IMG/VR virus record: IMGVR_UViG_3300036783_000276
Location: 1-30,708 of that record
DNA length: 30,708 nucleotides
Origin: a virus
Lineage: Duplodnaviria; Caudoviricetes
Direction: 5' to 3' (one strand)
Below the pieces are notes generated by a model. The model did not search any database, had not been told where the DNA came from, and was given only the letters and a program-made list of their open reading frames with translations. Of this stretch, positions 2,916-22,826 are shown piece by piece. Positions within the stretch are counted from its first letter, which is position 1. Each line of letters starts with the position of its first letter. Made by a program: the position numbers and the translations under genes.

Positions 2916-3178
2916 TACGCTGCCACTCCCCAGGCGGTCAGCCAGCCCGCGTCGTTAGATACCCCGGCCGGGATAGTGACCACGGTGCCCGAGGGGGACA
3001 GGACGACGGTGCCGACTACTGTCGTGCCGATCAGCGTCGCCGTCTTGACGGCCAGGAACCATGTGCCCAGGTCCACGGTGTCACCTGCGGTCATCTTCTT
3101 TATAGCGAACACGGCGGCCTTGTCGGCGTCGCCGTCCTGCCAGGCCAGGACCACCTGGTTCCCTGCTAGCGCTGCCAT
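2915..3178 (-). CDS. Small putative virion protein (MAALAGNQVVLAWQDGDADK...), 87 aa; also the C-terminal part of the 246-aa read-through ORF
   Basis: ATG at 3178 preceded by an AGGAG RBS; ends at a TAA overlapping the next ATG. Confidence 0.65.
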   Translation of the reverse strand: MAALAGNQVVLAWQDGDADKAAVFAIKKMTAGDTVDLGTWFLAVKTATLIGTTVVGTVVLSPSGTVVTIPAGVSNDAGWLTAWGVAA

Positions 3179-3655
3179 TACGTCTCCTAACTCAACCCAG
3201 GAACAGTTGAATGCGCAGTTCGGGTTCACCCCGGCCGGCGTGGAGACCAGCAGCGCCGTCCACACCGTCGAACCCGGCAGCAGGTAGTCCTCCCGGGACA
3301 GCGGGTACTGGATCAGCACTCCCGCAGCCGGGTTGAAGTACCACGTCTTGACCGGCACGAACGTCCCGCCCGACTGGGTGATCGGGGGGATGAAGGCGCT
3401 GAACGCGGAGGCCGTGGACTGGGCGGCGGCCGAGAGCTTGTTCGGGGTGTAGGAGGTCAGGGTCGGGATGTTGGTCGCGTTCCGGGCCAGCTGCACCTTG
3501 ATCCCGGCCGCCGAGGCGGCTGCGTCGAAGGTCACGTCCAGCCAGGTGATCACCCCGTCCGTGTTCGCGCCGCCGGACACGAGGCCGAACACCACCTGGT
3601 TGGGGGTGTTGGCGACGGTGGCGAACGATCCGGTGATCCCGAAGACCGCGCCCAC
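3178..3655 (-). CDS. Putative virion protein (MGAVFGITGSF...FNCSWVE), ~155 aa; ends at a TTA junction and is fused in frame to the next gene if TTA is decoded
   Basis: ORF-track entry 2915..3655 looks like two genes joined by GAG TTA GGA GAC GTA ATG; TAG (3187-3189) and TAA (3178-3180) lie in the +1 frame. Confidence 0.6.
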
Positions 3656-3658
3656 GGC

Positions 3659-4105
3659 TCAGAAGCCGCCAGCGCTGATGGCCTGGGCGGCGACCTGGAA
3701 CGTGTTGCCCACCGCGACGCCGATCGGCTGCCCGTTCCAGTTGCCGTACCAGACCCGGGTCGCCGAGCCGTCCGTCAGCTCCAGCGAGACGATGTTCCAG
3801 GCGCCGCCGGACCCGTTCGTCCAGGAGAACGCCGTGGTCTTCGGCAGCAGCACGTTCGACCCGGAGGCGCTGGCCTGGGTGGTGGCGATGTCGGAGAACG
3901 CGGTGCCCCCGGCGGTGTAGCCGGTGCCGGTCAGCTCAGTGCCGGAGGCCGCCCCGGTGCTGGCCGTGCTGGTGAGCTTCAGCTTCATCGCCGAGGCGGC
4001 CAGGGCGGTCAGCTGGGTGCCCGGATACCCGGCGGTGGCGCCGACCGGGAGGTTGGCGTTGAGCATGAGCGAGGAGCGGGTCTGGTCGATCGCGGTCTGC
4101 GCCAT
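3659..4105 (-). CDS. Putative minor tail protein, 148 aa
   Basis: GTELTGTGY and WYG...GNTF motifs resemble a widespread small phage tail-associated family; operon context. Confidence 0.65.
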   Translation of the reverse strand: MAQTAIDQTRSSLMLNANLPVGATAGYPGTQLTALAASAMKLKLTSTASTGAASGTELTGTGYTAGGTAFSDIATTQASASGSNVLLPKTTAFSWTNGSGGAWNIVSLELTDGSATRVWYGNWNGQPIGVAVGNTFQVAAQAISAGGF

Positions 4106-4106
4106 G

Positions 4107-4568
4107 TCAGGCCCCCGTCCCTACGGGCGTGATCTGCGCCGATCCCGGGAGCATGGTGATGATCAGCGGGCGGCAGACCGTGCAGCCGGGCACGTCCTTG
4201 TGGTGGTGGCCGCCGGGGCACGGCGGGACCCCCGTGGCCGGGTCGAACTGCGGGTGGAGCACGTCCGGGACGCCGCCGCGCCAGACCCGGCACTTACCGG
4301 GCTCGGGGCAGGGCGCGTCGTCGTGGCCGCCGGGGCAGGCGTTGGCGGCGGCGGCGTGGTCGTGGTCTTCGGAGCAGCAGCCCGAGCCCGGCGGGCAGAC
4401 GAGGTTGGCGTCCAGGTTGGCGTGCGAGCACTCGGGGTGGTGCTGGCCGACATTGGCGGCGTGGCCCGGCGGGCAGGAGCACTCCAGGAAAACCTGGGAC
4501 TGGCAGCCAGGGCAGAACAGCTGGATCAAGGCGATCGAGGCTTTCCGGGGAAGGATCTCCCGGCTCAC
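4107..4568 (-). CDS. Cys/His-rich putative metal-binding protein, 153 aa
   Basis: CPGC, CSC, HHPECSH, CCSEDHDH, HHH and CTVC motifs; abuts the next gene. Confidence 0.65.
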   Translation of the reverse strand: MSREILPRKASIALIQLFCPGCQSQVFLECSCPPGHAANVGQHHPECSHANLDANLVCPPGSGCCSEDHDHAAAANACPGGHDDAPCPEPGKCRVWRGGVPDVLHPQFDPATGVPPCPGGHHHKDVPGCTVCRPLIITMLPGSAQITPVGTGA

Positions 4569-4652
4569 TCGCTCGCTGAAAGCGCCAAGAATGCCGCAGG
4601 CTTACCGCAAAGATTACCGCAGGCAGAGCCCAGGTACCTAAGGCATCAGGGG

Positions 4653-4783
4653 GCTGCCGCCGGACACGGACGCAGGCGGGGTCCGGGCCTGCTTGCCGGC
4701 AACGGGTTCCCGGGCAGTGGACGGGAACCTGTTCCGGCCCGTCCGTGCCCGGGGTGTGGCAGCTACGGCCGCAAAGCTGTTCT
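4653..4783 (-). ncRNA. Putative structured cis-regulatory RNA (three-way junction) sharing its 5' motif with the capsid leader
   Basis: Minus-strand pairings GCTGCC/GGCAGC and CGGGCACGGAC/GTCCGTGTCCG, hairpin GCCGG-AAC-GGTTCCCG/CGGGAACC-GTT-CCGGC, hairpin GCAGGC/GCCTGC. Confidence 0.5.
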
Positions 4784-4785
4784 CG

Positions 4786-5370
4786 TCAACCTACCAGCCG
4801 GTGGTCGGCGTGTCCGGGCTTCATGTAAATGCCGCGCCGGGCGTCCTGGTCATCGAGCACGGGGAACCAGCCAGGCGGCGGGTTCTCCAGGTTGGCGCAG
4901 ATCACGACCGCTCCCGGGGCGGTGTCGCGCCAGACCTTGGCCTCGATCTGGGCCTGGATCCCGGCGTCCCGCGCGACCCGGTTGAACCAGGTGACCTGGG
5001 CCAGGCCGTAGCCGGGGTAGCTGCCCGCGTCGGCGACCGTGGCCCGCAGCCCGAGCGAGCAGGCGGCGGCCACGTACTCCGGCACCCGGTCGAAGCCGAG
5101 GATGTCCAGCCCGAAGATGTCCCGGGCGATCAGCAGCTCGGGGCCGGGCCCGCAGCCCACATCGAGGAACCGGACATTCTCGTCCGGGCCGGGTTCGTAC
5201 CCGTCGATCGCCTGGGCCAGCAGCCCGGTGAACTCGCCGGTGTTGAACGGCATCCACGAGGTGTAGAGCCTGCGGCTGACCGGATCCTGGACCACCTTGC
5301 CCTGCCACTCGCGGGCCAGCTGCGAGGCCCGGTGCATGGTGGCGGCGACGACGGAGGCCCGGGTGGTCAC
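4786..5370 (-). CDS. Class I SAM-dependent methyltransferase, 194 aa
   Basis: Motif I FLDVGCGPG, followed by GFD and VADA. Confidence 0.85.
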   Translation of the reverse strand: MTTRASVVAATMHRASQLAREWQGKVVQDPVSRRLYTSWMPFNTGEFTGLLAQAIDGYEPGPDENVRFLDVGCGPGPELLIARDIFGLDILGFDRVPEYVAAACSLGLRATVADAGSYPGYGLAQVTWFNRVARDAGIQAQIEAKVWRDTAPGAVVICANLENPPPGWFPVLDDQDARRGIYMKPGHADHRLVG

Positions 5371-5510
5371 TACTCCTCCCCGGCGGGAGGCCCGGTATCT
5401 CCCTCCGGCCGTTCCGGGGCGGCCTCCCCGGGCTTCACGCGGTCCCAGTCGGGCTTGCGCCCTCCCCTGGTCTCCGTCGCTGGCTGCGCCGGGTCTCCGG
5501 CCTTGTTCAT
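5370..5510 (-). CDS. Small hypothetical protein, 46 aa (MNKAGDPAQ...)
   Basis: GGAGG RBS before ATG 5510; TAG overlaps the GTG of the methyltransferase. Confidence 0.55.
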   Translation of the reverse strand: MNKAGDPAQPATETRGGRKPDWDRVKPGEAAPERPEGDTGPPAGEE

Positions 5511-5539
5511 GCGATCCTCCCTTGCTGTTCCCCCACGGA

Positions 5540-5869
5540 TCAGCCTGGCTGCTTCAGGACATAGTAGGGCCGGTTCAGGTTGGCTCCGCTGGTCCTGCGG
5601 ACATCCACGATATAGACGCACGGGGCCTCCAGGCCAGGGAACCCGCTGAACCGGACGAGCGCGTCGATCCAGGTTCCCGGGCTGGCCGGGGAGACCGTGA
5701 CGAGCGGCCCGCCGTCATGGCCGTAGCTGTCCAGGGCGGCGCTGTCCATCCACAGCTCCGGGCCGCCGATCCCGCCGGGCGCCTCATCCGGGATCCACCA
5801 CCAGCCCCAGCGGCCCCGGTGGTTATCCTGGCGTGCGTCAGCCGCCTCGTGCCTGGCAGTAACGGTCAC
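5540..5869 (-). CDS. Hypothetical protein, 109 aa
   Basis: ORF fills the operon gap with plausible codon usage. Confidence 0.55.
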   Translation of the reverse strand: MTVTARHEAADARQDNHRGRWGWWWIPDEAPGGIGGPELWMDSAALDSYGHDGGPLVTVSPASPGTWIDALVRFSGFPGLEAPCVYIVDVRRTSGANLNRPYYVLKQPG

Positions 5870-5878
5870 CAGAGCAGG

Positions 5879-6253
5879 CTACCCCCGGCTGATGATGGCC
5901 CACACGGCGGACTGCGAGATGCCGAACCTGACGGCCGCCTGCCGGGTGGTCAGGCCCTGCACCCGGCAGGCGACGATCACCTGGGCGCGGAGTTCCGGGC
6001 CGATCAGCCGCCGGCCCGGCCCCGGGAGGACGGTGAAGACGGTGACCGGGCTCCCGTCCGGGCCGGCGTCGAACCGGGTCAGCACCGCGTGCGCCCTCAC
6101 GCCGTAACGGCGGGCGTGCGCCCGGACCCGCTGGCGCACCCGGAGCCGGGGCTTCCCTTCCTCCAGCCGCCCGGGGACGACCAGCTCGGCCACGGGCTCC
6201 CGGCCGGAGGTGACGGCGAGGACGGCCGCGTACGGCACGGTCGTCTGGTACAT
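5879..6253 (-). CDS. Hypothetical protein with C-terminal helix-turn-helix, 124 aa
   Basis: ATG 6253 after AGGGGGA; C-terminal GLTTRQAAVRFGISQSAVWAII is a typical HTH. Confidence 0.65.
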   Translation of the reverse strand: MYQTTVPYAAVLAVTSGREPVAELVVPGRLEEGKPRLRVRQRVRAHARRYGVRAHAVLTRFDAGPDGSPVTVFTVLPGPGRRLIGPELRAQVIVACRVQGLTTRQAAVRFGISQSAVWAIISRG

Positions 6254-6395
6254 CGATCCCCCTGGACCTGGCTGGCGTCGCGTCCTACGATAACCAGTGG
6301 CCGTGCTCGCCGGCCCGCATCGAATCCTCCAGCGGGGATGAGACAAGGGGCGCCGCCCCAGCGAGCGCCACTCCCTCCCGCGCTACGCTGGGCCC

Positions 6396-7520
6396 ATGCC
6401 ACTGCCAGCATCCGCTTTCCCCCTGCGCACGTCCGGCCCGGAGATCCTCGGCGCGGACGGCTCGGCTGTCCGGCTGGCCGGGGTGAACTGGGGCGGCGGC
6501 GAGCAGGACGAGTGCGTCCCGTACGGGCTGGACAAGCTGCACCGGTCCGAGATCATCAGCCGGATCGCCGGCTGGGGGCTCAACCACGTCCGGCTCCCGT
6601 TCGCGGTCGCCGGGTTCGTCAACGCCGACAGCACGCCCCGGACCGCCCCGGCGCCGCTGGCCCGGACCAGCGCCAACCCGGACCTCCAGGGCCTGACCCC
6701 GTGGGGCATCTACCAGGTCCTGGTGAATGACCTCACCGAGGCCAGGCTGTACGTGGTCGCCGACCAGCACATGATCACCGCCGGGTGGTGCTGCTCCGGC
6801 GCGGACGGGAACGGGCTGTGGTACGCCACGTACTGGCCGCCCACCGCGTTCATCAGTGCCTGGAAGCTGGTGGCCACCCGGTTCGCGGCCAACCCGAGGG
6901 TCGGCTACGACATCCACAACGAGCCCCGCGCCACCACGGTCAGCGGGAAGACGGTCACGCCCACCTGGGGCGACGGGAACGGCTGGACCGACTTCCGGCA
7001 CATGTACGCCGACATGGCCGGCAAGATCCGCGCGATCGACCCGGACTGCCTGATCTTCTGCGAGGGCCTGAACTACGCCAGCGACCTGACCGGCTGGAAG
7101 GCGCACCCGGTGACCGGCCCGGGGATCGTCGCCTCCGTCCACGACTACTCCTGGTTCCACCCGGCCGGCCAGTCCGTCACGGACTACTACGCCCAGATGG
7201 ACGCGAACGCCGGGTACCTGGTCCAGCAGGGCACCGTCCCGTTGTGGGTGGGCGAGTTCGGCGCGGACACCGACGCCGCCGACGCGGCCCGGACCGCCGG
7301 CTGGCTGCCGCAGTTCATCTCCTGGGCCGCCGCCCGGGGCGTGCACTGGTGCTGGTGGGAGCTGAACGCGACCGGCGTCAAGGGCACCGAGCCGGTCACC
7401 AACACGCCGAAGGTCGCGGCCGGCGCGCGGGAGTCGTTCGGGCTGATCTCCGGGTACGACTGGCTCGGCAGCCAGGTGAACATCCTGGGCCAGCTCGCCC
7501 CGATCATGCCGGCGCCATGA
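6396..7520 (+). CDS. Glycoside hydrolase family 5 (cellulase family A), 374 aa
   Basis: GVNWGG, NHVRLPF, catalytic YDIHNEP, VHDY, nucleophile WVGEFG and WCWW motifs; TACGCT -10 box 6 nt before ATG. Confidence 0.9.
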   Translation: MPLPASAFPLRTSGPEILGADGSAVRLAGVNWGGGEQDECVPYGLDKLHRSEIISRIAGWGLNHVRLPFAVAGFVNADSTPRTAPAPLARTSANPDLQGLTPWGIYQVLVNDLTEARLYVVADQHMITAGWCCSGADGNGLWYATYWPPTAFISAWKLVATRFAANPRVGYDIHNEPRATTVSGKTVTPTWGDGNGWTDFRHMYADMAGKIRAIDPDCLIFCEGLNYASDLTGWKAHPVTGPGIVASVHDYSWFHPAGQSVTDYYAQMDANAGYLVQQGTVPLWVGEFGADTDAADAARTAGWLPQFISWAAARGVHWCWWELNATGVKGTEPVTNTPKVAAGARESFGLISGYDWLGSQVNILGQLAPIMPAP

Positions 7521-7619
7521 TCTGGTACGAGCTGAACACGCTGGCCGGGCTGTGGGTCCCGGCCGCCGCCGGGTGCGGCTGGCTGGCCTGGATGCTCGTG
7601 CGCAACCGGACCCGGTTAG
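7517..7619 (+). CDS. Small membrane peptide (MIWYELNTLAGLWVPAAAGCGWLAWMLVRNRTR), 33 aa up to a TTA-G junction
   Basis: ATGA coupling to GH5; hydrophobic; in-frame TTA at 7616-7618 with TAG in the +1 frame; otherwise it reads on antisense to the next gene up to 7786. Confidence 0.4.
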
Positions 7620-7789
7620 GGCACCCGGTTGCGGTCCCGCGCGCCGTAGTGGCGGCGGCTGCGCATCCGGCGGGTGAGCAGCCAGGTCGCGACCTTGGCC
7701 CGCAGCCAGGGCTGCCTGATGATCCAGCGGCCGAGAAGGACGCCCGCTCCCGCTGCCGCGACGCAGGCCAGGACGATCCAGGGTGACAT
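7616..7789 (-). CDS. Small membrane protein, 57 aa (MSPWIVLACVAAAGAGVLLGRWIIRQ...)
   Basis: Not in the ORF track; TACCCT -10 box 6 nt before ATG; N-terminal TM helix and basic tail; TAA stop. Confidence 0.55.
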   Translation of the reverse strand: MSPWIVLACVAAAGAGVLLGRWIIRQPWLRAKVATWLLTRRMRSRRHYGARDRNRVP

Positions 7790-7868
7790 GCTTCCAGGGT
7801 ACGGCGGGGCCCCCGTGCGTTACTACGCTCCAGGGGCCCCGTGATCCCGGCGCGGGACACCGGTCACG

Positions 7869-8885
7869 CTACCGGAACAGCGACCGGTACGCGACCTCCC
7901 ACAGCTTCCACCCGTCCTCGATCACGAACCGGGCGGCCATGGCCCGCGCCGCCTCGCCCATCTGCGCCCGGAGCGCGTCGTCGGAGGCCAGGACGGACAG
8001 GTACTTCAGCCACTCATGCTCCTGCTTCACCAGGAACCCGTTCACCCCGTGCACGATCACCGGCCGGTAGGCGGGCACGTCGGAGCAGACCGCCGGGATG
8101 CCCCGGGCGCCGTACTCGATCGCCTTGATCGCGGACTTGGAGTTGCTGAACGCGGTAGGCCAGACCGGGCACAGGCCGATGTCGAAGTCGATCAGCTGGT
8201 AGTACCGGTACGGGTGGTCGTTCACCTGGACCCAGGGCGCGAAGAACACCCGGTCGCGCGGGGCCCGGAACGTGGGCCGGTAGTCGGTGCCGCCCAGGTG
8301 CAGGTCCCAGCGGGGGAACCGCTTGAGGAACCGGCGGACCGGCTGGGCCACCTGGCCGATGTCGACGCCGTGGCTGGCGCCGCCCATCCAGCCGACCCGG
8401 GGCCGGTCCCGGGCCGGGCGCGGCGGCAGGCCCAGGACCCAGCCCGGGAGGTGGTTGGGGAGCACGGCGACGTTGCCGCTGTACTCCCGGAGCACCTCGG
8501 CCAGGGGCTCGGTGGAGACGGTCACCAGGTCGGCCACGGCCACGGCGTGCTCCACCGCGTCCCGGATCTCCGGCTTGCCGTATAGCTGGTACGCCTGCCA
8601 GTTTTCCTGCGTGATCGACCACAGGTCGTCATCGAGTTCGTAGACGAGCTTGGCGAACAGGCTGGCCCGGCGCCACACCTCCAGCCCGTCGTGCTTGTTC
8701 CACCGCTGCGCCACGATGACGTCGTGGCCCTGGAGGTCCCGCAGGGTGACCGGAGGCGGGTGGAACCGGTCCCCGGCGTCGATGTAGGTCACGTCGTGGC
8801 CGTGGCGGCCCAGCTCCGTCAGCGGTGTCTGCATCCGGTACCAGGCACAGCCTGAGCCGCCGTCGTGGCCGGCGAAGATTCTCAC
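7869..8885 (-). CDS. Glycosyltransferase, GT-B fold (GT4-like), 338 aa
   Basis: GCAWYR, VYELDDDLW, VTVSTEPL, VGWMGGASH, DIGLCP, KSAIKAIEYGARGIP and VNGFLV motifs. Confidence 0.9.
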   Translation of the reverse strand: MRIFAGHDGGSGCAWYRMQTPLTELGRHGHDVTYIDAGDRFHPPPVTLRDLQGHDVIVAQRWNKHDGLEVWRRASLFAKLVYELDDDLWSITQENWQAYQLYGKPEIRDAVEHAVAVADLVTVSTEPLAEVLREYSGNVAVLPNHLPGWVLGLPPRPARDRPRVGWMGGASHGVDIGQVAQPVRRFLKRFPRWDLHLGGTDYRPTFRAPRDRVFFAPWVQVNDHPYRYYQLIDFDIGLCPVWPTAFSNSKSAIKAIEYGARGIPAVCSDVPAYRPVIVHGVNGFLVKQEHEWLKYLSVLASDDALRAQMGEAARAMAARFVIEDGWKLWEVAYRSLFR

Positions 8886-9028
8886 GGCTTCTCCCTGATC
8901 CGGTCGGCGGTCCGTTCCAGGACCCGGATGAGGACCCGCAGCGCGAACGTTTCCTTCCGCGCCCGCTCGTGCAGGATCCGGGCCGCGCGGCGCAGGCAGT
9001 CCGCGTCGGACCCGGCGCAGGCCCTCAC
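8882..9028 (-). CDS. Small hypothetical protein, 48 aa
   Basis: GTGA coupling at both ends. Confidence 0.5.
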   Translation of the reverse strand: MRACAGSDADCLRRAARILHERARKETFALRVLIRVLERTADRIREKP

Positions 9029-9264
9029 TCGCTTACCCGCTCGGGCCAGTGCCAGGTCCCGGGCGCCTTGCCGTCCTCGTCCTGCCGGCACGGGCGGCTG
9101 AGCGCGTACGCGGGGAGCGGCTGGCCGCCGGGCGGGAACAGGGTCAGCGCGAGCGTGCCGTCCGGCAGCACCGCCGTGACGATGGCGGCCTGGCACGCAT
9201 CCAGCGCCAGCTCAGCCCGGCTGTCCGTCACGCAGTGCACGATCCGGCCGGGGGACGGCCTCAC
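9025..9264 (-). CDS. Conserved small phage protein, 79 aa (PSPGRIVH...AAIVT...GTWHWPER)
   Basis: GTGA-coupled start at 9264; motif pattern of a common small phage family. Confidence 0.7.
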   Translation of the reverse strand: MRPSPGRIVHCVTDSRAELALDACQAAIVTAVLPDGTLALTLFPPGGQPLPAYALSRPCRQDEDGKAPGTWHWPERVSE

Positions 9265-9557
9265 TGGATCTGCCCGGGGACGGCCTTGACCAGGCCGGGC
9301 TGGCGGGCCACGGTCAGCCCGGACTCGCTGAACGAGTCGCGCAGCGCGGTCATGGCGTCCACCCAGCCCTGGGCTTCCTCCCGGTCCTTGATGGGCACCG
9401 ACAGGGTGGTGTTCCCGCACCGGATGGTGAGGAACCCGCAGGTGCCGTCCGGGAGCGGGACCAGCCCGGTCACCATGATGGTCCGGACGCCGGTGTCGAG
9501 CAGCGTGTTGGCCACGTCGAACAGCGGGGGCAGGCCCACCTGGGTTGCCTCGCTCAT
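9261..9557 (-). CDS. Hypothetical protein, 98 aa
   Basis: Strong GGAGGAG RBS; coupled stop. Confidence 0.7.
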   Translation of the reverse strand: MSEATQVGLPPLFDVANTLLDTGVRTIMVTGLVPLPDGTCGFLTIRCGNTTLSVPIKDREEAQGWVDAMTALRDSFSESGLTVARQPGLVKAVPGQIQ

Positions 9558-9566
9558 GATCTCCTC

Positions 9567-10175
9567 CTAGCGGTAGGCGCTCGGCCACACATCGCAGGTC
9601 TCCTCGTCCACGCGGACGTGCCGGATGCCGGCCCTCATCCACGCCCACACCAGGTCCCAGTCCTCGAACTGGCCGCCGTGGTCCCAGCCCGCCACGTCCA
9701 GGATCTCCGCCCGGTGCATGATCATCGGGGTGCCCACGTTCCCGCACGCAACCGGGCCGGTGCCGATCACCGAGCTGCCGTTCGGCCCGTGGGACAGCAT
9801 CCGGGAGACCGCGAACCCCGCGCCCGGGTCCGCGTCCAGCGCCGCCGCCAGCAGCGTGCAGTGCGACGGCCGGAGCGCGTCGTCGTCGTCGCAGTAGGCG
9901 ATGTAGGCGCCCTGGGCGATCTCGCAGGCGTAGGCGCGGGCGTGGTGGCCGTAGTGCGGCTCCGGGTCGTGCTCGGGCAGCTCGCCGTAGTACACCCGGT
10001 TCCAGCCGTCCAGCCACGGCGTGATCATCCTGGTCCGCAGCACCGGGTCCGGGCCGTCGCCGATGACCAGGTGCTCCAGCTCGGGGTGGTCCTGGGCCTG
10101 GACCGAGGGCAGGCACCGGTCGAACAGGTAGTCGTGCCGCTGCCAGGTGGGAGTGACCACGGTGACCAGGCTCAC
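9567..10175 (-). CDS. Glycosyltransferase family 2, 202 aa
   Basis: GTG 10175; VTVVTPTWQR, GDGPD, YIAYCDDDD (DxD) and EDWDL motifs. Confidence 0.9.
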   Translation of the reverse strand: MSLVTVVTPTWQRHDYLFDRCLPSVQAQDHPELEHLVIGDGPDPVLRTRMITPWLDGWNRVYYGELPEHDPEPHYGHHARAYACEIAQGAYIAYCDDDDALRPSHCTLLAAALDADPGAGFAVSRMLSHGPNGSSVIGTGPVACGNVGTPMIMHRAEILDVAGWDHGGQFEDWDLVWAWMRAGIRHVRVDEETCDVWPSAYR

Positions 10176-10408
10176 CCCAGTTCCTCCAGGGCCTCGGGCG
10201 GCAGGTAGGCCTTCATGCGGACCAGATCGCAGGTGACCAGCCGGTGCTCGGTAAGCGGATCCGGCTTCCTGGCGATATCCTCCAGCCGGGCCACCAGGCA
10301 CAGCAGGTCGATCAGCTTCACCGGGATCTCGTCGTCACCGTGCTCCCGGATCCAGTCCGGCTCAGGACCGGGCTGCGCCCAGCGGTCTACCACGAACTCC
10401 AGGCTCAC
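10172..10408 (-). CDS. Hypothetical protein, ~78 aa
   Basis: GTGA coupling at both ends. Confidence 0.55.
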   Translation of the reverse strand: MSLEFVVDRWAQPGPEPDWIREHGDDEIPVKLIDLLCLVARLEDIARKPDPLTEHRLVTCDLVRMKAYLPPEALEELG

Positions 10409-11145
10409 CCGGGCCACCACTCCGGGATGTTCAGCCTCGCGTTGAACGCGGCCAGCGACTCCGGGGTGAACGGCGTGCCGCCGAGCTTGGCGATGTCGGC
10501 GTTGAGGCCGCCGTCGCCCTGGCGGCGGGAGTAGGCGTGCCAGGCCCGCAGGTTTTCCCCCGTCTGTGCATAACTGCGTGCGTAAGTCTGGTCGTGCCCG
10601 GCGCCGAGGGTGTAGTGGTGGTGCGGCAGCATGACGTCATCAAGGTACTCGTGGCCGCAGGCCTGGCACCAGGCGTACCAGGCGACGTCCACGTACATGT
10701 GGCTGATCTCCGGCGGCCCGGCGTAGCCCAGGATCCGCACCACGTCGGCGCGCATGAAGATGTGGCAGCTCAGGCTCCCGGGCTCGCGCGGGTACCGGTC
10801 GTTGGCGAACGCGAACAGCTCGCGGCGCAGCGAGTCCCGGATCCGGTCGTCCCAGCCCCAGGTGTCGCAGGTGTTGTCGTCGCCGACGTGGCCGATGAAC
10901 TCGAACTGCCCCCAGGTCATCACGGCCAGGTAGTTGATCCAGGCGGTGACGTAATGCAGGCCGTCGCTGATCACGTAGCCGGGGCCGGCCGGGTACTCGT
11001 CCCGGGTCTCGTCGTCGGCGTCCAGGCCGATCAGCAGCGTGGTCCGGCCGGCGCAGGTCCGCTGCATCGACTCCCACAGCCGGGCCGCGTTGCCGGGCCT
11101 GCGCAGGCTGGGCACCAGCAGGCCGAGCCGCCCGTCGCCGTCCAT
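10405..11145 (-). CDS. GT2-like glycosyltransferase, 246 aa
   Basis: TGATG-coupled ATG 11145; LLVPSLRRP, LDADD, HVGDD, HMYVD and HHHY motifs. Confidence 0.8.
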   Translation of the reverse strand: MDGDGRLGLLVPSLRRPGNAARLWESMQRTCAGRTTLLIGLDADDETRDEYPAGPGYVISDGLHYVTAWINYLAVMTWGQFEFIGHVGDDNTCDTWGWDDRIRDSLRRELFAFANDRYPREPGSLSCHIFMRADVVRILGYAGPPEISHMYVDVAWYAWCQACGHEYLDDVMLPHHHYTLGAGHDQTYARSYAQTGENLRAWHAYSRRQGDGGLNADIAKLGGTPFTPESLAAFNARLNIPEWWPG

Positions 11146-11810
11146 CAGCAGCTCCCCGGGGCGGCCAGCACGGTCAGCCACGGGTAAGCGGGCAGCGGCT
11201 TGACGTCGGCGAGCGCCTGGCGGCCGGTCAGGAACGTGTCGCCGGTCTTCTCCCGGTACAAGTAGACCGGCGGCGGCGGGATCCAGGCCTCGGTCTGGCA
11301 CCGGCCGGTGGCGATCACCCGGTCGCCCCAGGCCTTCTCAGCGCCGTACCCGCCCGACCACTGCCCGGCCACGGCCAGCTCCCGGCGGATCGGGTTGAAC
11401 TGCATGACAGAGCGGAGCAGCCGTTCCGGGCCGTCCTCCCAGCGGGGGTGCCGCAGCGAATGCTCCACCGGGATCTTCTGCTCGCCGTCGCGGGTCCAGC
11501 CGATGGCGAACCCGACGTAATCCGGCTCGGAGCCCAGCGCGATCAGCACCCGGGCCAGCCCGTCCGGGGCGAGCAGGTCGTCGTCATCGATGCAGGACAC
11601 GTAGTCGGCCTCGCTGGCCGCCACCAGCGCGGCGGTCTTCTCGCCGTAGGAGACGGTCAGGTTGTCCCGGTACAGCAGCACCCCGACCCGGCCCAGCGCC
11701 TCGCAGGCGGTGATCTGAGCGTCCAGGCAGGCCAGCAGCTCGCACAGCGTCTCGTGCCTATGGGGGATCGAGGCAATGAGCAGATCCCAGGTGGGGCAGG
11801 CGCGGGTCAC
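11145..11810 (-). CDS. GT2-like glycosyltransferase, 221 aa
   Basis: GTG 11810; LLIASIPHR, GEKT, YVSCIDDDD and FNPIRRELA motifs. Confidence 0.8.
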   Translation of the reverse strand: MTRACPTWDLLIASIPHRHETLCELLACLDAQITACEALGRVGVLLYRDNLTVSYGEKTAALVAASEADYVSCIDDDDLLAPDGLARVLIALGSEPDYVGFAIGWTRDGEQKIPVEHSLRHPRWEDGPERLLRSVMQFNPIRRELAVAGQWSGGYGAEKAWGDRVIATGRCQTEAWIPPPPVYLYREKTGDTFLTGRQALADVKPLPAYPWLTVLAAPGSC

Positions 11811-12172
11811 GTCAGCAGCCTCGCGTTCTCCGGCAGCCGGGTCGTGTCGGTCTCGTACGCCTCCCCCGAGCGCGGCCCCCGGGTGAAGACCAGCACGGTG
11901 GTGTCTTCCAGGGCCTTCCAGGCGTGCGGGATGCCGGCTTGCTCGATGATCATCTCGCCCGGCAGGTGGACCGAGGACACCCGCCCGTAGCCGTCGATGC
12001 TGGCTGAGGTGAACACCATCTTGCCGGAGACGATGTAGGTCCACTGGGTGGTCAGCTTGTGGACGTGGTTGCCGCGCACCGCCCCGGCCTTGGTGGTGAT
12101 CTCGGTCACCGCGTCGACCTGGCCGAGGAGGTCCTGGATGACGCCGCGCTCGTCCTCGTACCGGTCAGTCAC
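11807..12172 (-). CDS. Cupin (RmlC/FdtA-like NDP-sugar isomerase/epimerase), 121 aa
   Basis: EDERG, RGNHVHK, QWTYIVSG and PHAWKALED cupin motifs; adjacent to sugar genes. Confidence 0.8.
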   Translation of the reverse strand: MTDRYEDERGVIQDLLGQVDAVTEITTKAGAVRGNHVHKLTTQWTYIVSGKMVFTSASIDGYGRVSSVHLPGEMIIEQAGIPHAWKALEDTTVLVFTRGPRSGEAYETDTTRLPENARLLT

Positions 12173-12386
12173 GGTAGATCACCAGCCCGTCCGTGGTGCC
12201 GATCTGCTGCCAGCCGGTCTCAGGCGCCTTGTAGTCGCAGCCCTCGCCGTCCCAGCCGGGGCACTCCCACGTGGTGGCGGTGTAGCCCTGCGCTTCCCCG
12301 GCGCGCGGTTTCATCAGGCCGTGCACGGGGCATTCCGGCGTCATCTGGATGTACAGCTGGGCAGGGCCGGTGCGGATCTCAGCCAC
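12165..12386 (-). CDS. Small Zn-ribbon-like protein, 73 aa
   Basis: CPVHG...WECPGWDGEGC. Confidence 0.6.
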   Translation of the reverse strand: MAEIRTGPAQLYIQMTPECPVHGLMKPRAGEAQGYTATTWECPGWDGEGCDYKAPETGWQQIGTTDGLVIYRD

Positions 12387-13563
12387 GGTAGATCCTGGGG
12401 GCCGGGAGCGGGATGATGACCTGGCCCCGGTAGCCGGCCGCGCGGAGCTTGGGCACCACGTCGCTGGCGATGTGCCAGCAGAACAGGACCGCGTTCGGGG
12501 GCTGCTCGCGGATCATCTCGGCCTCGTCCGCGACCATGATGGCCGTGCCTGGCATGACGGTGCCGATCTTAGCGGAGGCGGGCACCTCGGCGATCTTGCG
12601 GATCCAGCGGCCAAGGCCGGCGAAGTGGATCAGCGGGGTGGCCCGGGTGGCGGCGCCGATGCCCCAGACCGGGCCGTCCTCGCTGGCGATCTCCAGCAGC
12701 CGGCCCAGCTGGTCGCGGGCGGTCTCGGCGCGGGCCTGGAGCTGCTGCGGCCGGCGGGCGGCCCAGGTGCGGAACGACCCGCCGTGCGTGCCGATGTTCT
12801 CGGTCCGGGTGACCAGGAAGCCGTGCATCTCCAGCAGCCGGCCGAGCGTGGCGGGGGTGAAGAACCGCAGGTGCTCGTGGTACACGGTGTCGATCTGGAG
12901 GCCGTTCAGGACCGAGGCGGCGTCGTGGTTCTCGGTGATGAAGACGCCGCCGGGCTCCAGCAGCAGCGAGACGCCCTGGATGAAGTCGTGCGGGTCGGCG
13001 ACGTGGGCCAGGACGTTGGACGCGGTGATCACCCGGGCCTGGCCGAGGGTCTTGGTGATGTCGCCGGCCAGGTTCCAGGTCCAGGGATGCTGCTCGACCG
13101 GGATCACCTTGTCCCGGCACGCGGCGGCCTGCCCGGTGGGTTCCACGGCGAGCAGCCGGGCCTCGGGGTCGGCGCGGCGCACCGCGTCCAGCAGGGTGCC
13201 GTCGTTGGCGCCGATGTCCACCACCAGGTCCCGGGACCGGAGCAGCGGGGCGATCTCCCGGGCGAGCTTGCCGAAGTGCATCCGCATGGCCCGGGTGTTG
13301 CCGGTGGCGTACGGGTGATCGGGCGGGAACACCTCGTCCCGCTCCACCTGGTAGCTGAGCTGGATCAGCCCGCAGGTGCCGCATTCGAGCAGCCCGAGCG
13401 GGTACCGGTTCCCGTCGTCGCGCTCAGCCAGCGGCTGGTCGCCCAGGTCCAGGATCTGGATCATGCCGTCAGCCCGGTCCTCGCCGCAGAGCTGGCAGTG
13501 CTGCTCCGGGACCGGGCCGGCCAGGAAGGTGTCCAGGAGCTTCCGGGCCAGGTCCGGGTTCAC
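12379..13563 (-). CDS. NDP-hexose C-methyltransferase (NovU/TylC3-like), 394 aa
   Basis: CQLC, LDLGDQPLA, CGTCGLIQL, VVDIGANDG, NVLAHV, DTVYHEHLRFF, THGGSFR, GIGA and FCWH motifs. Confidence 0.9.
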   Translation of the reverse strand: MNPDLARKLLDTFLAGPVPEQHCQLCGEDRADGMIQILDLGDQPLAERDDGNRYPLGLLECGTCGLIQLSYQVERDEVFPPDHPYATGNTRAMRMHFGKLAREIAPLLRSRDLVVDIGANDGTLLDAVRRADPEARLLAVEPTGQAAACRDKVIPVEQHPWTWNLAGDITKTLGQARVITASNVLAHVADPHDFIQGVSLLLEPGGVFITENHDAASVLNGLQIDTVYHEHLRFFTPATLGRLLEMHGFLVTRTENIGTHGGSFRTWAARRPQQLQARAETARDQLGRLLEIASEDGPVWGIGAATRATPLIHFAGLGRWIRKIAEVPASAKIGTVMPGTAIMVADEAEMIREQPPNAVLFCWHIASDVVPKLRAAGYRGQVIIPLPAPRIYRG

Positions 13564-13790
13564 TGGATCTCCCGGTATCCGAATCCGAACCCGTGATTAG
13601 GCACGGGCAGCCCGGCCGCGAGCCGCCGCCGCATGACGGTCTCGGCTGCTGCCTGCTCTGCTTCATCAGCGGTGTTCTTGTCGTACCTGGCCTGAAGCTC
13701 GGTCATGCGCTCATCCCATTCCGGGGTATGCACGATGCCGCGCGCACGCTCCTCGTTGTACTGCGCGAGCGCCTTAACCCAGTCGGTCAT
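13560..13790 (-). CDS. Hypothetical protein, 76 aa
   Basis: ATGA/GTGA coupling; YNEERARGIVHTPEW. Confidence 0.65.
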   Translation of the reverse strand: MTDWVKALAQYNEERARGIVHTPEWDERMTELQARYDKNTADEAEQAAAETVMRRRLAAGLPVPNHGFGFGYREIQ

Positions 13791-14758
13791 GTGTTCTCCC
13801 GGTACCAGGCGACGGTCAGCGGCAGGCCCCGGGTGAACGGGGTGCGGGGCAGGTCCACGCCGGCGCCCCGGGCCAGGGCCGCGATCTTGGCGACGTCCGG
13901 CAAGCGGCGCGGCGGTGAGCCCTGCGGCAGCTTCCCGGGCTCCAGCTTGATCCGCCGGCCGTAATACTCGGCGGTCAGGTGCGCGACCTGGCTGATGGTG
14001 ATCTCGTCCATGGTTCCGGCGTGGTAGATCCCGGCCGGGGTACGCGGGTCCAGCAGCAGGGCCAGCTGGGCGGTGCAGTCGCCGATGAAGCAGAACGACC
14101 GGGTTTCCAGGCCGGACCCCTGGACGGGGAACGGGATGGGCCCCTCGGGGTAGCTGGCGGTGAGCCGGTTCATGCGCAGGCAGAACTCGGGGATGACGTG
14201 CTCTTTCCCCATGTCCGGGCCGTAGATGTTGTGCGGCCGGGCGATGATCACCCGGTCCAGCACCCCGGCGCGTTCCCAGGCCAGCGCCATCAGCTCGCAG
14301 GCGATCTTCCCGCCGCCATAGGAGTACCGGGGGTTCAGCGGGTCCGGGACGGTCAGCGGGACGGTCTCCGGGGTGGGTACCTGGCCGGCCACCTGGTAGG
14401 CCTCGGAGGAGCTGATCAGCAGCAGGTCGGCGCAGCCGGTGACCGCGCAGGCGTCCAGCACGGCGAGCATGCCCCGCAGCGCGACGTCCAGGACCTGGCG
14501 GGGCTCGGCGTAGAAGGTCTGGGTGCCCTGGATGTAGGCGGCGTGGATCACCGCGTCGCAGCCCTGCATGGCGGCGGCCACCCGCACCGGGTCCCGGACG
14601 TCGCCCTCGTGCACGTCCAGGTCGGTCCAGGCCGGCAGGCGGCCCCGGCGGCCCCGGCTGAAGTCGTCCAGGACCGAGACCGAGTGGCCGTCCGCGAGCA
14701 GCCGGACGGCCAGGTTGGATCCGATGAACCCGGCACCGCCGGTTATCAGGTAGCGCAC
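13787..14758 (-). CDS. NAD-dependent NDP-sugar epimerase/dehydratase (extended SDR)
   Basis: TGGAGFIGS, SSSEAY, YGGGK (YxxxK), RPHNIYGP and RSFCFI motifs; GTG 14758 after GAGGAG (the ORF track starts at 14779). Confidence 0.92.
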   Translation of the reverse strand: MRYLITGGAGFIGSNLAVRLLADGHSVSVLDDFSRGRRGRLPAWTDLDVHEGDVRDPVRVAAAMQGCDAVIHAAYIQGTQTFYAEPRQVLDVALRGMLAVLDACAVTGCADLLLISSSEAYQVAGQVPTPETVPLTVPDPLNPRYSYGGGKIACELMALAWERAGVLDRVIIARPHNIYGPDMGKEHVIPEFCLRMNRLTASYPEGPIPFPVQGSGLETRSFCFIGDCTAQLALLLDPRTPAGIYHAGTMDEITISQVAHLTAEYYGRRIKLEPGKLPQGSPPRRLPDVAKIAALARGAGVDLPRTPFTRGLPLTVAWYRENT

Positions 14759-14841
14759 GGCAGCACGGCTCCTCGTCATGGCGGGTGTCGTGGCAGCTCC
14801 CTGCCCCCTGGCCGGGCGGGCCGTGCCCTAAGCCAGGATAG

Positions 14842-15510
14842 CTACCCGGACGGCGGCTTGCCCACGTACATCGCGTAAGCGGCCCGCCAGTCCGTCGCGA
14901 TGGCGTGCTGGGCGGTCGCCAGCGGCACGGTCCCGGCGCACACCTTCGCGTGCAGGACGTCCTCCAGCACGTCCTTGGAATTGTGCACGAACGCCGGGTC
15001 GAGGTGGTACTTCGCGATCATCGCCGGGTCGGGGACGTCGTTCAGCTCGGGGTACAGGTTCCGGGCGGGGTCGGCCGGGTCGGCGCCGGCCTGGCCCAGC
15101 AGCTCGATCGGGATGATGTGGTCGACCTCGTACTCGCCGGCCGTGCGGTGCGTGATGCCGTACGCGGCGTAGACCCTGTTCTTCTCCGCCGTACCGGGCC
15201 GCATCGCCTCCAGGGCCGGGTTCACGTGCGGGCAGATGTCCGCGATCGTGTAGCCGGGCTGGACGGCGCCGGGTGACAGCGCGCGGTCCGGCAGCTTCCA
15301 GCTGGCCGGGTAGCGGGTGCCGGCCGGGCTGCGCGCGGCGGCGGGCGGGGAGCCGGCGGATGAGGACACGTCCGGGACCGGCGTGCTGCTGGACGGCGCG
15401 CACCCGGCGGCCAGCAGCACGCCGAGAGCGGCCATGGCCAGAGCGGCCATGGCCAGAGCGGCCATGGCCAGAGCGGCCGTGGCGGCAGCGCGAGCCTGGC
15501 AGCGGTTCAC
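14842..15510 (-). CDS. Putative secreted lipoprotein with HNH-like nuclease motif, 222 aa
   Basis: Signal peptide with LAAGC lipobox; EYEVDHIIPIELLG...NLYPE...KDVLED...VCAG...AIATDW; TATCCT -10 box 6 nt before GTG. Confidence 0.7.
   Translation of the reverse strand: MNRCQARAAATAALAMAALAMAALAMAALGVLLAAGCAPSSSTPVPDVSSSAGSPPAAARSPAGTRYPASWKLPDRALSPGAVQPGYTIADICPHVNPALEAMRPGTAEKNRVYAAYGITHRTAGEYEVDHIIPIELLGQAGADPADPARNLYPELNDVPDPAMIAKYHLDPAFVHNSKDVLEDVLHAKVCAGTVPLATAQHAIATDWRAAYAMYVGKPPSG
15425..15483. repeat. 15-bp tandem repeat (AGAGCGGCCATGGCC, ~3.9 copies) encoding AALAM in a signal peptide
   Basis: Three exact copies at 15425, 15440 and 15455, plus a near-copy at 15470. Confidence 0.9.
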
Positions 15511-15528
15511 GCTCCCAGGATAAGCGGG

Positions 15529-15685
15529 CTAACCAGTAGTGACGGCGCCCGCCGACCGCGTGCCCGGCCGCCCCGGCGATCCACAGCACCGCGCCGACGA
15601 CGAGCAGGATCAGCCCGATGACCCACAGCAGGTAGATGCCGAGGATGAAACCGATGATGGCGAGCAGCGCTCCGACGATGATCAT
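15529..15685 (-). CDS. DUF6131-like small membrane protein, 51 aa ending GGRRHYW, followed by TTA-G instead of a stop
   Basis: MIIVGALLAIIGFILGIYLLWVIGLILLVVGAVLWIAGAAGHAVGGRRHYW matches the actinobacterial family pattern; TAG is in the +1 frame at 15529-15531. Confidence 0.75.
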
Positions 15686-17436: not shown

Positions 17437-17487
17437 CAGGGGCTCCTCATCTCGGTGCCCGGCTCCTGACGGCCTCGGGTCTTGCAG

Positions 17488-18598: not shown

Positions 18599-18670
18599 TG
18601 CCTTCCTCCGGGTCCTGGTCCAGGGCCCGTGCCGTCGCCTGGCAGCGGCACGGACCCGGACGTGACGTGG

Positions 18671-18725
18671 TTGCCATTCTTTAATTCACTTTGCTCCGTC
18701 AGGGCCGCGAATTAAAGAATGGCAA
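18671..18725. terminator. Perfect 17-bp AT-rich inverted repeat immediately after the capsid stop codon
   Basis: TTGCCATTCTTTAATTC (18671-18687) pairs with GAATTAAAGAATGGCAA (18709-18725), 21-nt loop; no U-tract, so terminator function is inferred. Confidence 0.55.
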
Positions 18726-18727
18726 TT

Positions 18728-19987: not shown

Positions 19988-20000
19988 TTCGGTTTTCCCT

Positions 20001-20071
20001 TCTGACTAGGCATCCTTTGTCTGCGGCTCCGTCCGTACGCTTAGGCAGCTACGGCCTCTCAGACTGTTCTG
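20001..20071 (-). promoter_or_regulatory. Capsid leader motif AGAACAG-N7-GGCCGTAGCTGCC-N7-ACGGACGG
   Basis: The same blocks recur at 4739-4783; can fold (GTCTG/CAGAC, CCGTA/TACGG). Confidence 0.5.
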
Positions 20072-20088
20072 TTTTCTGGACGGGCGAG

Positions 20089-21102
20089 CTAGATCTCGTC
20101 CGCGTAGGGGTCCTCCATGTTGTTCTGGAGGGCGAGCAGCGCCTGCTGCCCGGTCATGGCCGGACGCGGCTTGGCCCGCTGCGCCGGGACCGTGGTCTTC
20201 GGCCGGCCGCCGTCCGCGCTGACCCGCTTGAAGAACTCCATCGCCCGGCCGGAGGTCAGCATCGAGCGGACCTCCTCGGGGTCGCCCTGGACCCAGTTGG
20301 ACAGCGATTCCACCGCGCCGTTCATCGCGCGGGCGCCGGCCGTGGCATCCGGGTAGGCCGGGTCGAGGACCGGCGCGACATCGATAAGTTGCAGGTCAAG
20401 CAGGGTCCGCATCGGGTAGTTGAACTCCGAGACACCCCACTCGTCGCCGCCCGGGTAGACCCGGAAGGCGAAGCTGCTGTGCCGGACGTCGCCGCGCTGC
20501 ACGTATTCGAGGACGTCGCTGCGGGCGTTCGGGGGCTGGACCTCGTACACCAAGCCGGTGTCGTCGGTGGCCAGCCGGAGGGTGCGGGCGTGGGTGGTGC
20601 CGAGCAGCGCGGTGTTGTCGTGGTTGTACCGGCACACGACGTCGGGCCAGCCATCGGCCTTGGCCGAGTTGAACGCCGACCGGTTCACCTGCTCCACGAA
20701 CCCGCCCAGCTTGCGGCTCAGCTTGTCGTAGCAGGCCGCGTACCCGTAGATCATGCTCGGGCCGCCGTCGTGCTGGGACCGGATCTCCGGCGGGAACCGG
20801 GTGAACCGGCGCTCCGGGAACCCGTCCGGCTCGGCGATCCCGAACGCGGACCGCTCGTTCCCGGACACGTTGATGCCGTGCTTGCGCGCGGCGGCCAGGA
20901 TCTTCGGCATCGCGGCCTTGCCGAACGGCGACTGCGGCGCTCGTGACAATGCATTACGAGTGTGTGCCTCGTCGTGAACTGGGAAGTGGCGCTTGGATCT
21001 GGGGGTTGTCTTCCCGGACGGGTCGCGCTGACCCCCCGGCTCGATATACGCGAACGCGCTGTCGGGGAGATCATTGATCGCAGCCGACGTCATTTCAGCC
21101 AT
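20089..21102 (-). CDS. HK97 prohead maturation protease with N-terminal DUF6582-like domain, 337 aa
   Basis: NDLPDSAFAY...HFPVHDEAHTRNAL domain, then GYAACY, FVEQV, YNHD, SSFAF and DVAPVLDPAYPD protease motifs. Confidence 0.92.
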   Translation of the reverse strand: MAEMTSAAINDLPDSAFAYIEPGGQRDPSGKTTPRSKRHFPVHDEAHTRNALSRAPQSPFGKAAMPKILAAARKHGINVSGNERSAFGIAEPDGFPERRFTRFPPEIRSQHDGGPSMIYGYAACYDKLSRKLGGFVEQVNRSAFNSAKADGWPDVVCRYNHDNTALLGTTHARTLRLATDDTGLVYEVQPPNARSDVLEYVQRGDVRHSSFAFRVYPGGDEWGVSEFNYPMRTLLDLQLIDVAPVLDPAYPDATAGARAMNGAVESLSNWVQGDPEEVRSMLTSGRAMEFFKRVSADGGRPKTTVPAQRAKPRPAMTGQQALLALQNNMEDPYADEI

Positions 21103-21182
21103 GCTCTGTAACCCTTCGTTTACCTGGCTAAACCCGGGCGCAACGATCGCCCCTGCGTTACCGTTCACGGGAATGCCCGGCA

Positions 21183-22826
21183 TCAGTGACCACTCCCGTT
21201 GACACCGTTGAGGACGGCCGTCTTCGGCGCCGGTATCCACGCGCCTACGTACTCCGGTTCGTCCCGGTACCCGCCCAGCCGTCCCCACTGGCCGCTGCCG
21301 CCAAGGCCGCCAGCTCGCTTGCCCGGGGCGTACCGACCGTAGTCCCGGGCCAGATCCTGGATGACGTGCTCCGGCAGGGCGATCCCGAGCCGGCTGAAAG
21401 ACTCAGCTATATCACGCACGTCGCGCAGGTCAGCCCCTCCGCGCCAGTCGTTATGACCCCGTTGCTGGCCGATCGTCTGGGCCAGCACCGACTCCGGCCC
21501 GGGGACCGGCTGGCCGGAGTCGGCGGCGATGCCTTCCTTCTCCAGCTTCTCCAGCCGGTCCACAGCCAGGTCCATCTCCAGCGTGATCGCATCGAGCATC
21601 GAGTTCGGGATGCCACGGATCGACCTGGACATCGCCACCATGACCTCCAGCGGGATGTTCTCCCCGCCGGCCTTGCCGGGCAGCGGCTCCAGGTCCTCCA
21701 GGTCACGCAGCTCATCGGTGGTGCGCAGGCCCATGTCCCGCTGGAGCTTGTAAATCTCGGTCCGCGTCTTCAGATCGGTCTTCAGGAGGGCATCGCTGTC
21801 GAAGCGGCAGTACCGGTTGGACGGGAGGATGTCAAAGAACGCGGTCTCCAGCCGGACCAGCCACGGACGCAGCGCCTCGATCACCTGGAGCGTGCTTTGC
21901 TCAACGGTATTGTAGGTGAGCGAGTCACCCCTGGTGCCGCCGATGCGGTCGGGAGGCAAACCCAGCACCGAGGCCATCTGGGTGGCGTTCATCCGCATCG
22001 CATCAATAAACTGCGCCTCAGAAGGCGGCACCGTTACCGGTTTGTAATCCCAGTCCCTTCCATATACAAGTGGCTCCCTGCGGCGGATTGTCGCAGTCAG
22101 CATCGAACGGATCTCCTCAGCCTGATCCGCATCGATCTCTATTTCGGAATTCTGGAACGTGCCTGGGGGGAAACCGCCAGCCCTGTACCAGTCGGTGCCG
22201 TACCGCTGGGCTTCCAGGCCGGACAGGATGGTCAGCGCGAACGCGCGCAGCAGCGAGATCCCCTCCAGTCGGCCGGCCAGGGAAAACGCCTTGACGTGGA
22301 ACAGCTCGTCTCGCTTCATGAGACGGCCGTAGACATAAATCCTGGTCCGCAGCGGGTTCCACGGCTGCATCTCGTCGTCCTGGACGCTGACGTCATCGGG
22401 GGGAATCCACTCGATCCCGGTGGGGAACCCGTAGCCGTCCCGGCCGGTGATGAACCCCCAGGCGTTGCCCTGGAGGACCAGGCTGGTCATCATCGTGAAC
22501 AGCCAGTCGAACAGGGTGCCGTCCACGGACGGGTGGTCGAACAGGGTGGGCCCGTGCCAGCGGACCGCGTGTCCGTCCGGGCCGTTGCGGGCGTAGATCT
22601 TCAGCGGCAGCGCGGACACCGAGTCGGCCAGCAGCCGGGCGCCGGAGTAGAGCGCGGGCAGGCCGAGGGCCTCGTCCTGGCCGTACATCGACCGGGACGG
22701 GTGGACCGGGCCGCCCTGGCTAAAAACTTCCAGAAAGGACTATCCCACGGGCGGTAATCGCCAGGGGACACCTCCTATAACGCGCTGCTCAGATCGGCTA
22801 GCCTGGATGCGTTCTATGAGACCCAC
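21183..22826 (-). CDS. Portal protein, HK97 family; full length (~544 aa) requires two recoding events at TTA codons (22755-22757, 22721-22723); the ORF track shows only 21183..22688
   Basis: LLADSVSALPL, LVLQGNAW, LFHVK, GISLL, EAQFID and LRPWLVRLE motifs; GTG 22826 with GGAGGAGG RBS is in frame with ATG 22688 but blocked by TAG at 22740-22742. Confidence 0.9.

Follow-up and report, generated by a model that had tools for sequence, protein, structure and literature searches.

An in-frame TTA in IMGVR_UViG_3300036783_000276, a virus fragment of 30,708 nucleotides (nt) and 70% GC, and in its relatives appears to act in two ways: as a slow stop at the ends of genes and, where a codon matching the preceding one lies 2-11 bases ahead, as the first codon of a short insert over which ribosomes would hop. 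On the sequence evidence set out here, we give this reading a probability of about 0.72. Both classes of TTA occur in dozens of relatives, take-off and landing codons at the inserts are matched, and every portal gene that bears an insert has a strong start. The window analysed is the entire record. Its minus strand encodes terminase, portal, protease, capsid and glycosylation genes, and the nearest cultured phage, judged by the portal, reaches 33% in its best match.

Inserts led by TTA in the portal gene and in relatives

The features of the portal region are as follows.

21183-22826, minus strand: portal gene (PF04860), with a GTG start at 22826
22751-22760, minus strand: hop site 1, with a 7-nt coding gap; take-off CGA 22760-22758, TTA 22757-22755, one base, landing CGC 22753-22751
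22719-22726, minus strand: hop site 2, with a 2-nt gap; take-off TTT 22726-22724, TTA 22723-22721, overlapping landing TTT 22724-22722, resuming at AGC
22770-22776, minus strand: internal Shine-Dalgarno (SD)-like AGGAGGT, 9 nt ahead of take-off codon 1
22835-22846, minus strand: strong ribosome-binding site ahead of the replacement start of the portal, from anti-SD pairing
22865-23581, plus strand: HNH endonuclease gene of 238 amino acids (aa) (phrog_374, E 9e-50), separating the old portal start from the new one
23594-23617, minus strand: remnant of the original portal start (8 codons, VGLIERIQ), preceded by the same sequence as in the intact L008 and L009

Translated straight from the GTG at 22826, the portal halts after 28 codons at the TAG at 22742-22740, and a full-length product requires that both inserts be skipped. 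If the 7 nt after CGA and the 2 nt after TTT are skipped, the window portal matches its intact relatives: the predicted junction peptide of the hopped portal is VPWRPWDSPFWKFSQGG, and intact relatives (L001) read GLIERIQASRSEQRVIGGVPWRPWDSPFWKFSQGG here. The 7-nt design of site 1 recurs in L010, L036 and L069 with a different middle base; at site 2, a -1 slip with one added residue also restores the frame. Contigs from three runs span both portal sites gap-free with identical bases, and the TTA codons at 3188 and 15530, discussed below, are spanned by one contig and by two strain variants, respectively; one of the runs that supply these bridging contigs may be the source sample. The window sites are thus not a sequencing artefact, in agreement with the first-pass annotation of this DNA, which had argued against a uniform base-calling artefact. 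Window DNA is present in soil metagenome runs, none of which, among those listed, consists of RNA data.

Relatives carry many such inserts. With hop lengths of 1-21 nt allowed, an automatic search identified TTA-led inserts, 24 in total, in 20 portal 5' ends among 48 distinct ones; three of 36 terminase rows have a single such insert (row L092, with a score of 37, was excluded as mis-anchored); the same search returned no TTA-led insert in the window's own terminase. Five large relatives were examined whole and seven of their inserts were read by eye. All five have a TTA-led insert in a glycosyltransferase-like gene (PF13524), at five different positions, and one has a further insert in another, unnamed gene.

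TTA hops in the glycosyltransferase-like gene: G001 50836, G002 152540, G003 117330, G004 58614 and 58880, G005 128815

Across the 32 insert designs the gaps measure 2-11 nt, and eight of the inserts keep the frame. The landing matches the take-off codon at two or three of three positions in 29 of the 32 and is a synonymous codon in 24; shuffled take-off/landing pairs gave means of 6.1 (matched) and 3.6 (synonymous), with maxima of 16 and 12 in 20,000 shuffles.

The association of TTA with frame anomalies, proposed for the window in the first-pass annotation, extends to these relatives. Among frame changes detected by all-against-all tblastn, 13 of 16 contexts in viral loci contain an in-frame TTA; the three rows without one were set aside as over-long or truncated query calls, a cause checked for two of them and not for L081. 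Eight of nine contexts in whole genomes also have an in-frame TTA, leaving one real-looking frameshift without it (G001, at about 199050 on the minus strand), in a gene that matches a 1,595-aa primase/helicase-like protein of G004.

Portal genes with and without inserts also differ at their starts. Anti-SD pairing is stronger in each of the 20 hop portals than in any of the 28 intact ones (mean -11.8 versus -7.7 kcal/mol), and GGAG or GAGG at the two Gly codons of the internal SD-like motif is found in 9/20 and 3/28, respectively (P 0.016). The starts of hop-bearing portals are AT-richer, with a third-position GC content of 0.55 versus 0.80. On a tree of 46 portal-body rows the hop label changes 11 times, nine of these changes being forced by well-supported branches, and the rows nearest to the window are intact. 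We also note long insertions, probably inteins, in terminase (L026, L078) and portal genes (L026, L032, L033-L036; portal 863 aa).

TTA at gene ends

The remaining two in-frame TTA codons of the window stand where homologous genes end.

3188-3655, minus strand: 155-codon gene with TTA 3190-3188 at its end; if this TTA is decoded as Leu, the next gene is joined on in frame
2915-3178, minus strand: 87-aa gene downstream of the 3188 TTA, with its own GGAG and an ATG (3178) 9 nt past the TTA
15530-15685, minus strand: DUF6131 gene of 51 codons with TTA 15532-15530 at its end; if this TTA is decoded as Leu, the frame continues for 233 codons over the next gene

Eight of nine homologues of the 3655-3191 protein are 151-158 aa long, and seven end at the aligned W-x-E or one residue past it; the ninth (P0001, 96%) shows the same fusion, with a length of 246 aa. 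A scan of viral contigs with this protein gave no match, so the comparison at 3188 is one of protein ends. For DUF6131, the 120 best homologues all end in HYW or HYY, as does the window gene before its TTA, and 116 of them have a length of 51 aa. In L006 and L009 the DUF6131 homologue has TTA-C at the same stop position. A second TTA follows in the same frame at 15523-15521, where it would be accounted for by a TATCCT motif. This motif lies 6 nt ahead of a GTG start in the window (15510-15523 and 14832-14838) and also in L006 and L009, and is likely the -10 box of a leaderless transcript.

To place these sites in a wider context, stop columns were surveyed in 130 viral loci and the window. Among 244 columns backed by at least five different homologue ends, 214 hold TGA, TAG or TAA, seven hold TTA and 23 hold other codons (TCA 0, CGA 0, TGG 1); with any support, TTA occupies 11 of 630 columns. 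Of the 253,798 codons called in this survey, 50 are TTA. The genes closed by TTA include the major capsid gene (L070, L012) and the terminase (L075, L045, L036), and in some relatives the gene-end TTA overlaps the next ATG. The distance to the next standard stop is greater downstream of TTA than downstream of the remaining sense codons (P 0.002). Matched landings also follow 10 of 11 gene-end TTA codons; these were left unused, as most come after CGN or CTN codons with a high chance rate.

The first-pass annotation had reported no in-frame TTA in the intact bodies of roughly 50 genes. With gene calls from our own codon-model script, hand-corrected to 54 curated stretches from which the four real sites were cut out, we likewise counted none in 9,405 codons, but chance alone predicts only 0.2 (TTG x CTA / CTG). 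The absence from the window is uninformative by itself, being expected at 70% GC, and was dropped as evidence. The depletion becomes significant once relatives are added: six genomes supply 107,322 aligned codons from gene interiors, among which TTA stands opposite a residue 0 times versus 14.2 expected (P 7e-7), and each of the three TTA codons found in these aligned internal regions belongs to an insert.

The earlier observation is confirmed in part. Its sites at 22755, 22721, 3188 and 15530 are in-frame TTA on the coding (minus) strand, and its proposal that UUA prompts recoding in a number of late genes is supported by the portal here and by the portal, terminase and glycosyltransferase-like gene in relatives. 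It missed, however, that the gene-end sites form a second class in which TTA replaces a stop codon, it misread the signal as a +1 shift, and two of the sites that it listed as in-frame TTA are of another kind.

7616-7618, minus strand: ordinary TAA stop that ends a 57-aa open reading frame; TTA only on the non-coding plus strand
21109-21111, minus strand: TTA, once proposed as part of a protease leader, in the spacer between the ribosome-binding site (SD-like GAAGGG) and the protease ATG at 21102; not conserved, with no TTA there in 15 of the 16 relatives whose junction was read

Phage translation genes and candidate hosts

Four of the large relatives have 34-39 tRNA genes each, none with anticodon UAA and none with UAG either; the fifth has no tRNA genes. 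We found no release factor or peptidyl-tRNA hydrolase in five related phage records, no anticodon nuclease in a Pfam scan of 181 of the 271 G001 proteins plus two G005 proteins, and no transfer-messenger RNA (tmRNA) at the default threshold in the tRNA scan of the relatives, a relaxed run giving noise. In the window, an ARAGORN call of tRNA-Thr at 6055-6145 was rejected: it sits within a coding gene and has no Rfam match. An RNase P RNA (RF00010, 261 bits) lies within a phage tRNA cluster at L196 12493-12844 (G005). G001 encodes an adenylosuccinate synthetase homologue, a CCA-adding enzyme and a TROVE protein (L174 10902-12185, L178 7488-8909 and L172 15898-17574, respectively). In the window, a glycosyltransferase cluster, a C-methyltransferase and an NAD-dependent epimerase stand among the structural genes (7869-14779 and 6396-7520), with a GH5 hydrolase on the strand opposite to the glycosylation cluster.

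Matches to Lsr2, DUF6131 and the capsid indicate an actinomycete host, and the nearest prophage capsids, at 48-57%, come from several actinomycete genera. Release factor 2 (RF2) was surveyed in 301 genomes of the family of G006 (Actinoallomurus spadix), which we take to be Streptosporangiaceae. The canonical VRISPFD was matched in 174 of the 301, a few of the matches being other genes, and 128 have an x-Y motif instead: SKY in 102 (for example G037, G097 and G029; L329-L331), SPY in 14, SAY in seven, SQY in four and SRY in one. These tallies include the unpublished genome G135, on which no claim rests. In SKY genomes (191,388 codons), 10 of 13 in-frame TTA codons fall within the last 30 codons of a gene, versus 3 of 32 in SPF genomes (236,454 codons; P 2e-5); in these bacteria with canonical RF2, TTA is several times more frequent than expected (32 versus 7.5). 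Just one TTA of the SKY genomes is clearly internal; it belongs to a transposase-like gene (L261 2806-3963, G056), presumably IS630 from its motif.

Pattern searches had first suggested a host without tRNA-Leu(UAA). This idea was abandoned after a search with a DNA query had turned up the gene, whose loop reads C-C-UAA. The query matches all 30 of 30 SKY genomes, the anticodon letters of those 30 being unread. A tRNA-Leu(UAA) with C at position 33 (loop CC-UAA-AA) is present in SKY, SPY and SPF genomes (L452, L456, L457 and L460, near 1500-1590), and seven SKY genomes have a second, different tRNA-Leu(UAA) (L425-L431). Two genes of relative G002 have DNA matches in at least 23 of 40 SKY genomes and 0 of 40 others, among the matches listed, with three candidates scored per genome. 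The link between these phages and the SKY clade is weak.

Mechanism, alternatives and known systems

From the placement of the TTA codons we infer every ribosomal step of the following scheme. A ribosome would pause with UUA, which is read slowly, in its A site. At gene ends, where no matched codon lies ahead, the chain would be released. At inserts, the peptidyl-tRNA would lift off, re-pair on the matched triplet 2-11 nt further on and resume translation; only part of the ribosomes would hop, so that portal output would equal the hop fraction of a strongly initiated message. The portal inserts would travel in a replacement 5' end delivered with the HNH homing endonuclease. A stop-like UUA would be a sufficient trigger, since the phiHau3 site still hopped in E. 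coli after its UUA was changed to UAA (PMC10732093). Release itself might be carried out by the host RF2 variant (SKY) in competition with a poor UUA tRNA, to which the sequences lend a little under even odds, or the chain might be lost through drop-off, or through rescue of ribosomes at a codon short of charged tRNA, a route whose chances we would set slightly lower.

A more far-reaching proposal is that a large clade of soil actinobacteria related to Actinoallomurus is half-way through a sense-to-stop change, with RF2-SKY terminating at UUA while a crippled tRNA-Leu(UAA) persists. For their phages, UUA would be a fourth stop and also a general stop-hop device of 2-11 nt, which would set the output of portal, terminase and a glycosyltransferase and give shelter to cassettes with homing endonucleases. 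We advance this tentatively and would expect it to fail more often than to hold. If true, a sense-to-stop change would have been caught half way in free-living bacteria.

Several observations weigh against the reading of TTA as slow stop and hop signal, or against its link to SKY hosts. Matched landings could partly stem from an origin of the inserts by duplication. HNH homologues upstream are found for 5/20 hop portals and 1/28 intact ones (P 0.07; tblastn with a single query), and no stable stem-loop was found at the window hops (z +0.83 for the one window folded, 22690-22845). At 3188, release at UUA is not forced, because a 7-nt hop (GAG...GAG, then Thr and TAA) yields nearly the same protein. 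In SKY genomes, TTA was seen at none of 240 aligned stop columns and in none of 20 tmRNA tags, and three or more of their 'terminal' TTA codons lie past a frameshift or past homologue ends; the bacterial TTA sample amounts to 0.7 Mb, and its loci come partly from one orthologous region. The tRNA-Leu(UAA) gene is retained in these genomes. Their RF2 keeps its serine, unlike the serine change reported for organellar UUA-reading RF2 in PMC12574857 (whose numbering is unmapped to ours). No prophage of the window's phage group was found in 401 family genomes or in 80 SKY genomes, and window DNA matches 9/40 SKY versus 21/40 other genomes, that is, with no preference for SKY.

One alternative, which we regard as a real possibility but well short of an even bet, is that the inserts are scars of selfish elements with no regulatory role. 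Homing endonucleases would have replaced the portal 5' end, the inserts would spoil the cut site, and hopping at an unreadable codon would rescue enough protein. The window, with its HNH gene, left-over old start and AT-richer replacement start, fits this history, as do the scattered distribution of hops on the portal tree and the precedent of T4 mobA/gene 60. Yet 15 of the 20 hop portals have no HNH homologue upstream (tblastn, one query), the glycosyltransferase hops occur at five positions without a recognised adjacent HNH gene, and the gene-end TTA codons are left unexplained. As an origin of the inserts, this history is compatible with TTA acting as a slow stop and hop signal.

A switch of the Hau3 type, in which UUA remains a Leu codon and its tRNA is charged only in some host states, is a slightly less likely alternative. 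When the charged tRNA is scarce, ribosomes would hop and portal and terminase would be made; when it is abundant, the genes would be read into a stop, with gene-end TTA causing a stall and drop-off or a tolerated extension. This has a published model and reporter data for the phiHau3 terminase behind it (PMC10732093), candidate hosts retain the tRNA gene, several with the odd C-C-UAA loop, the hops cluster in packaging genes, and the eight in-frame inserts would still give protein if TTA were read as Leu. Leu reading of the TTA codons that close capsid and terminase genes in relatives would, however, add up to more than 99 residues or fuse neighbours. Moreover, internal TTA depletion tracks the RF2 motif and not the tRNA type, with SPF genomes that have internal TTA beside SKY genomes that do not.

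A mechanism offered by the first-pass annotation, in which TTA-G causes a +1 shift into TAG, is very improbable: TTA-G is found at three of the four real window sites but at just 9 of the 32 insert designs, the following base varies, with TTA-C or TTA-T at homologous gene-end sites (TTA-C at the same stop in L006 and L009), and such a shift at hop site 2 would put TAG in the portal frame and abolish the protein. Least credible are sequencing errors, pseudogenes or random stop-loss mutations; although TTA is one base from TAA and TGA and the contig is a 30.7-kb fragment, contigs from several runs are gap-free, the many independent inserts all begin with TTA, and TTA occurs at stop columns more often than the other codons one step from a stop, though these are far commoner as codons.

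If TTA does act as slow stop and hop signal, the consequences reach beyond this window. Programmed bypassing is known from very few genes, and the 32 natural designs in four gene families form a series for defining the minimal requirements of a hop and for asking whether the ten-year-old Hau3 model holds. In the literature reached, organelles are the one setting in which a UUA terminator has been published; the idea becomes testable with this phage group and with a candidate bacterial clade whose RF2 motif is changed. In such soil phages, genes called by standard methods come out truncated, as for the portal, or else fused or extended. In the literature searched, which does not cover subscription journals, we found no report of portal bypassing, of RF2 SKY, or of UUA serving bacteria or phages as a stop, and a term search of PMC13462651 and PMC8629427 returned no mention of UUA.

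The closest known system is that of Antonov et al. (2023, PMC10732093), in which UUA triggers bypassing in the large terminase gene of the Streptomyces phage phiHau3 and in two prophages. That system and the present one share short, frame-breaking, UUA-led inserts, two of them in one gene, in an essential packaging gene whose homologues have no insert, as well as landing codons that match the take-off (here CGA/CGC and TTT/TTT) and a nearby internal SD. They differ in that inserts here affect portal and glycosyltransferase besides terminase, in 20/48 portals versus 3/100 ter genes there. The gaps here are 2-11 nt, some landings overlap the UUA, no stem-loop was found, and TTA also closes genes. 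The phiHau3 UUA bypass reportedly goes back to Smith et al. in 2013, as cited by Antonov et al. As far as can be told, the host here may be other than Streptomyces.

In Streptomyces, bldA controls TTA-containing genes, and TTA is read as an internal Leu. As there, TTA is very rare in these phages and its meaning may depend on the state of the host, but here no TTA aligns to a residue. The T4 gene 60/mobA bypass cassette (Manning and Atkins, bioRxiv 10.1101/2022.08.31.505936) also has matched codons, a stop or hungry codon after the take-off, an HNH endonuclease beside a replaced 5' end, and the possibility of loss. In contrast, T4 has a 50-nt gap at one conserved site in a topoisomerase gene, with stem-loop and nascent-peptide signals, and here there are many sites with gaps of 2-11 nt. 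UUA serves as a stop in the mitochondria of labyrinthuleans and Marsupiomonadales and in peDinoflagellate plastids (PMC12574857), where, as here, it is missing inside genes and present where homologues stop, and where an altered release factor is suspected. The present case involves a phage and possibly a free-living bacterial clade, TTA takes up about 2-3% of gene ends, the candidate hosts retain the tRNA gene, and the RF2 change is from P-F to K-Y with the serine kept. The system of the window works like Hau3 bypassing combined with an organellar UUA stop, without having every defining feature of either.

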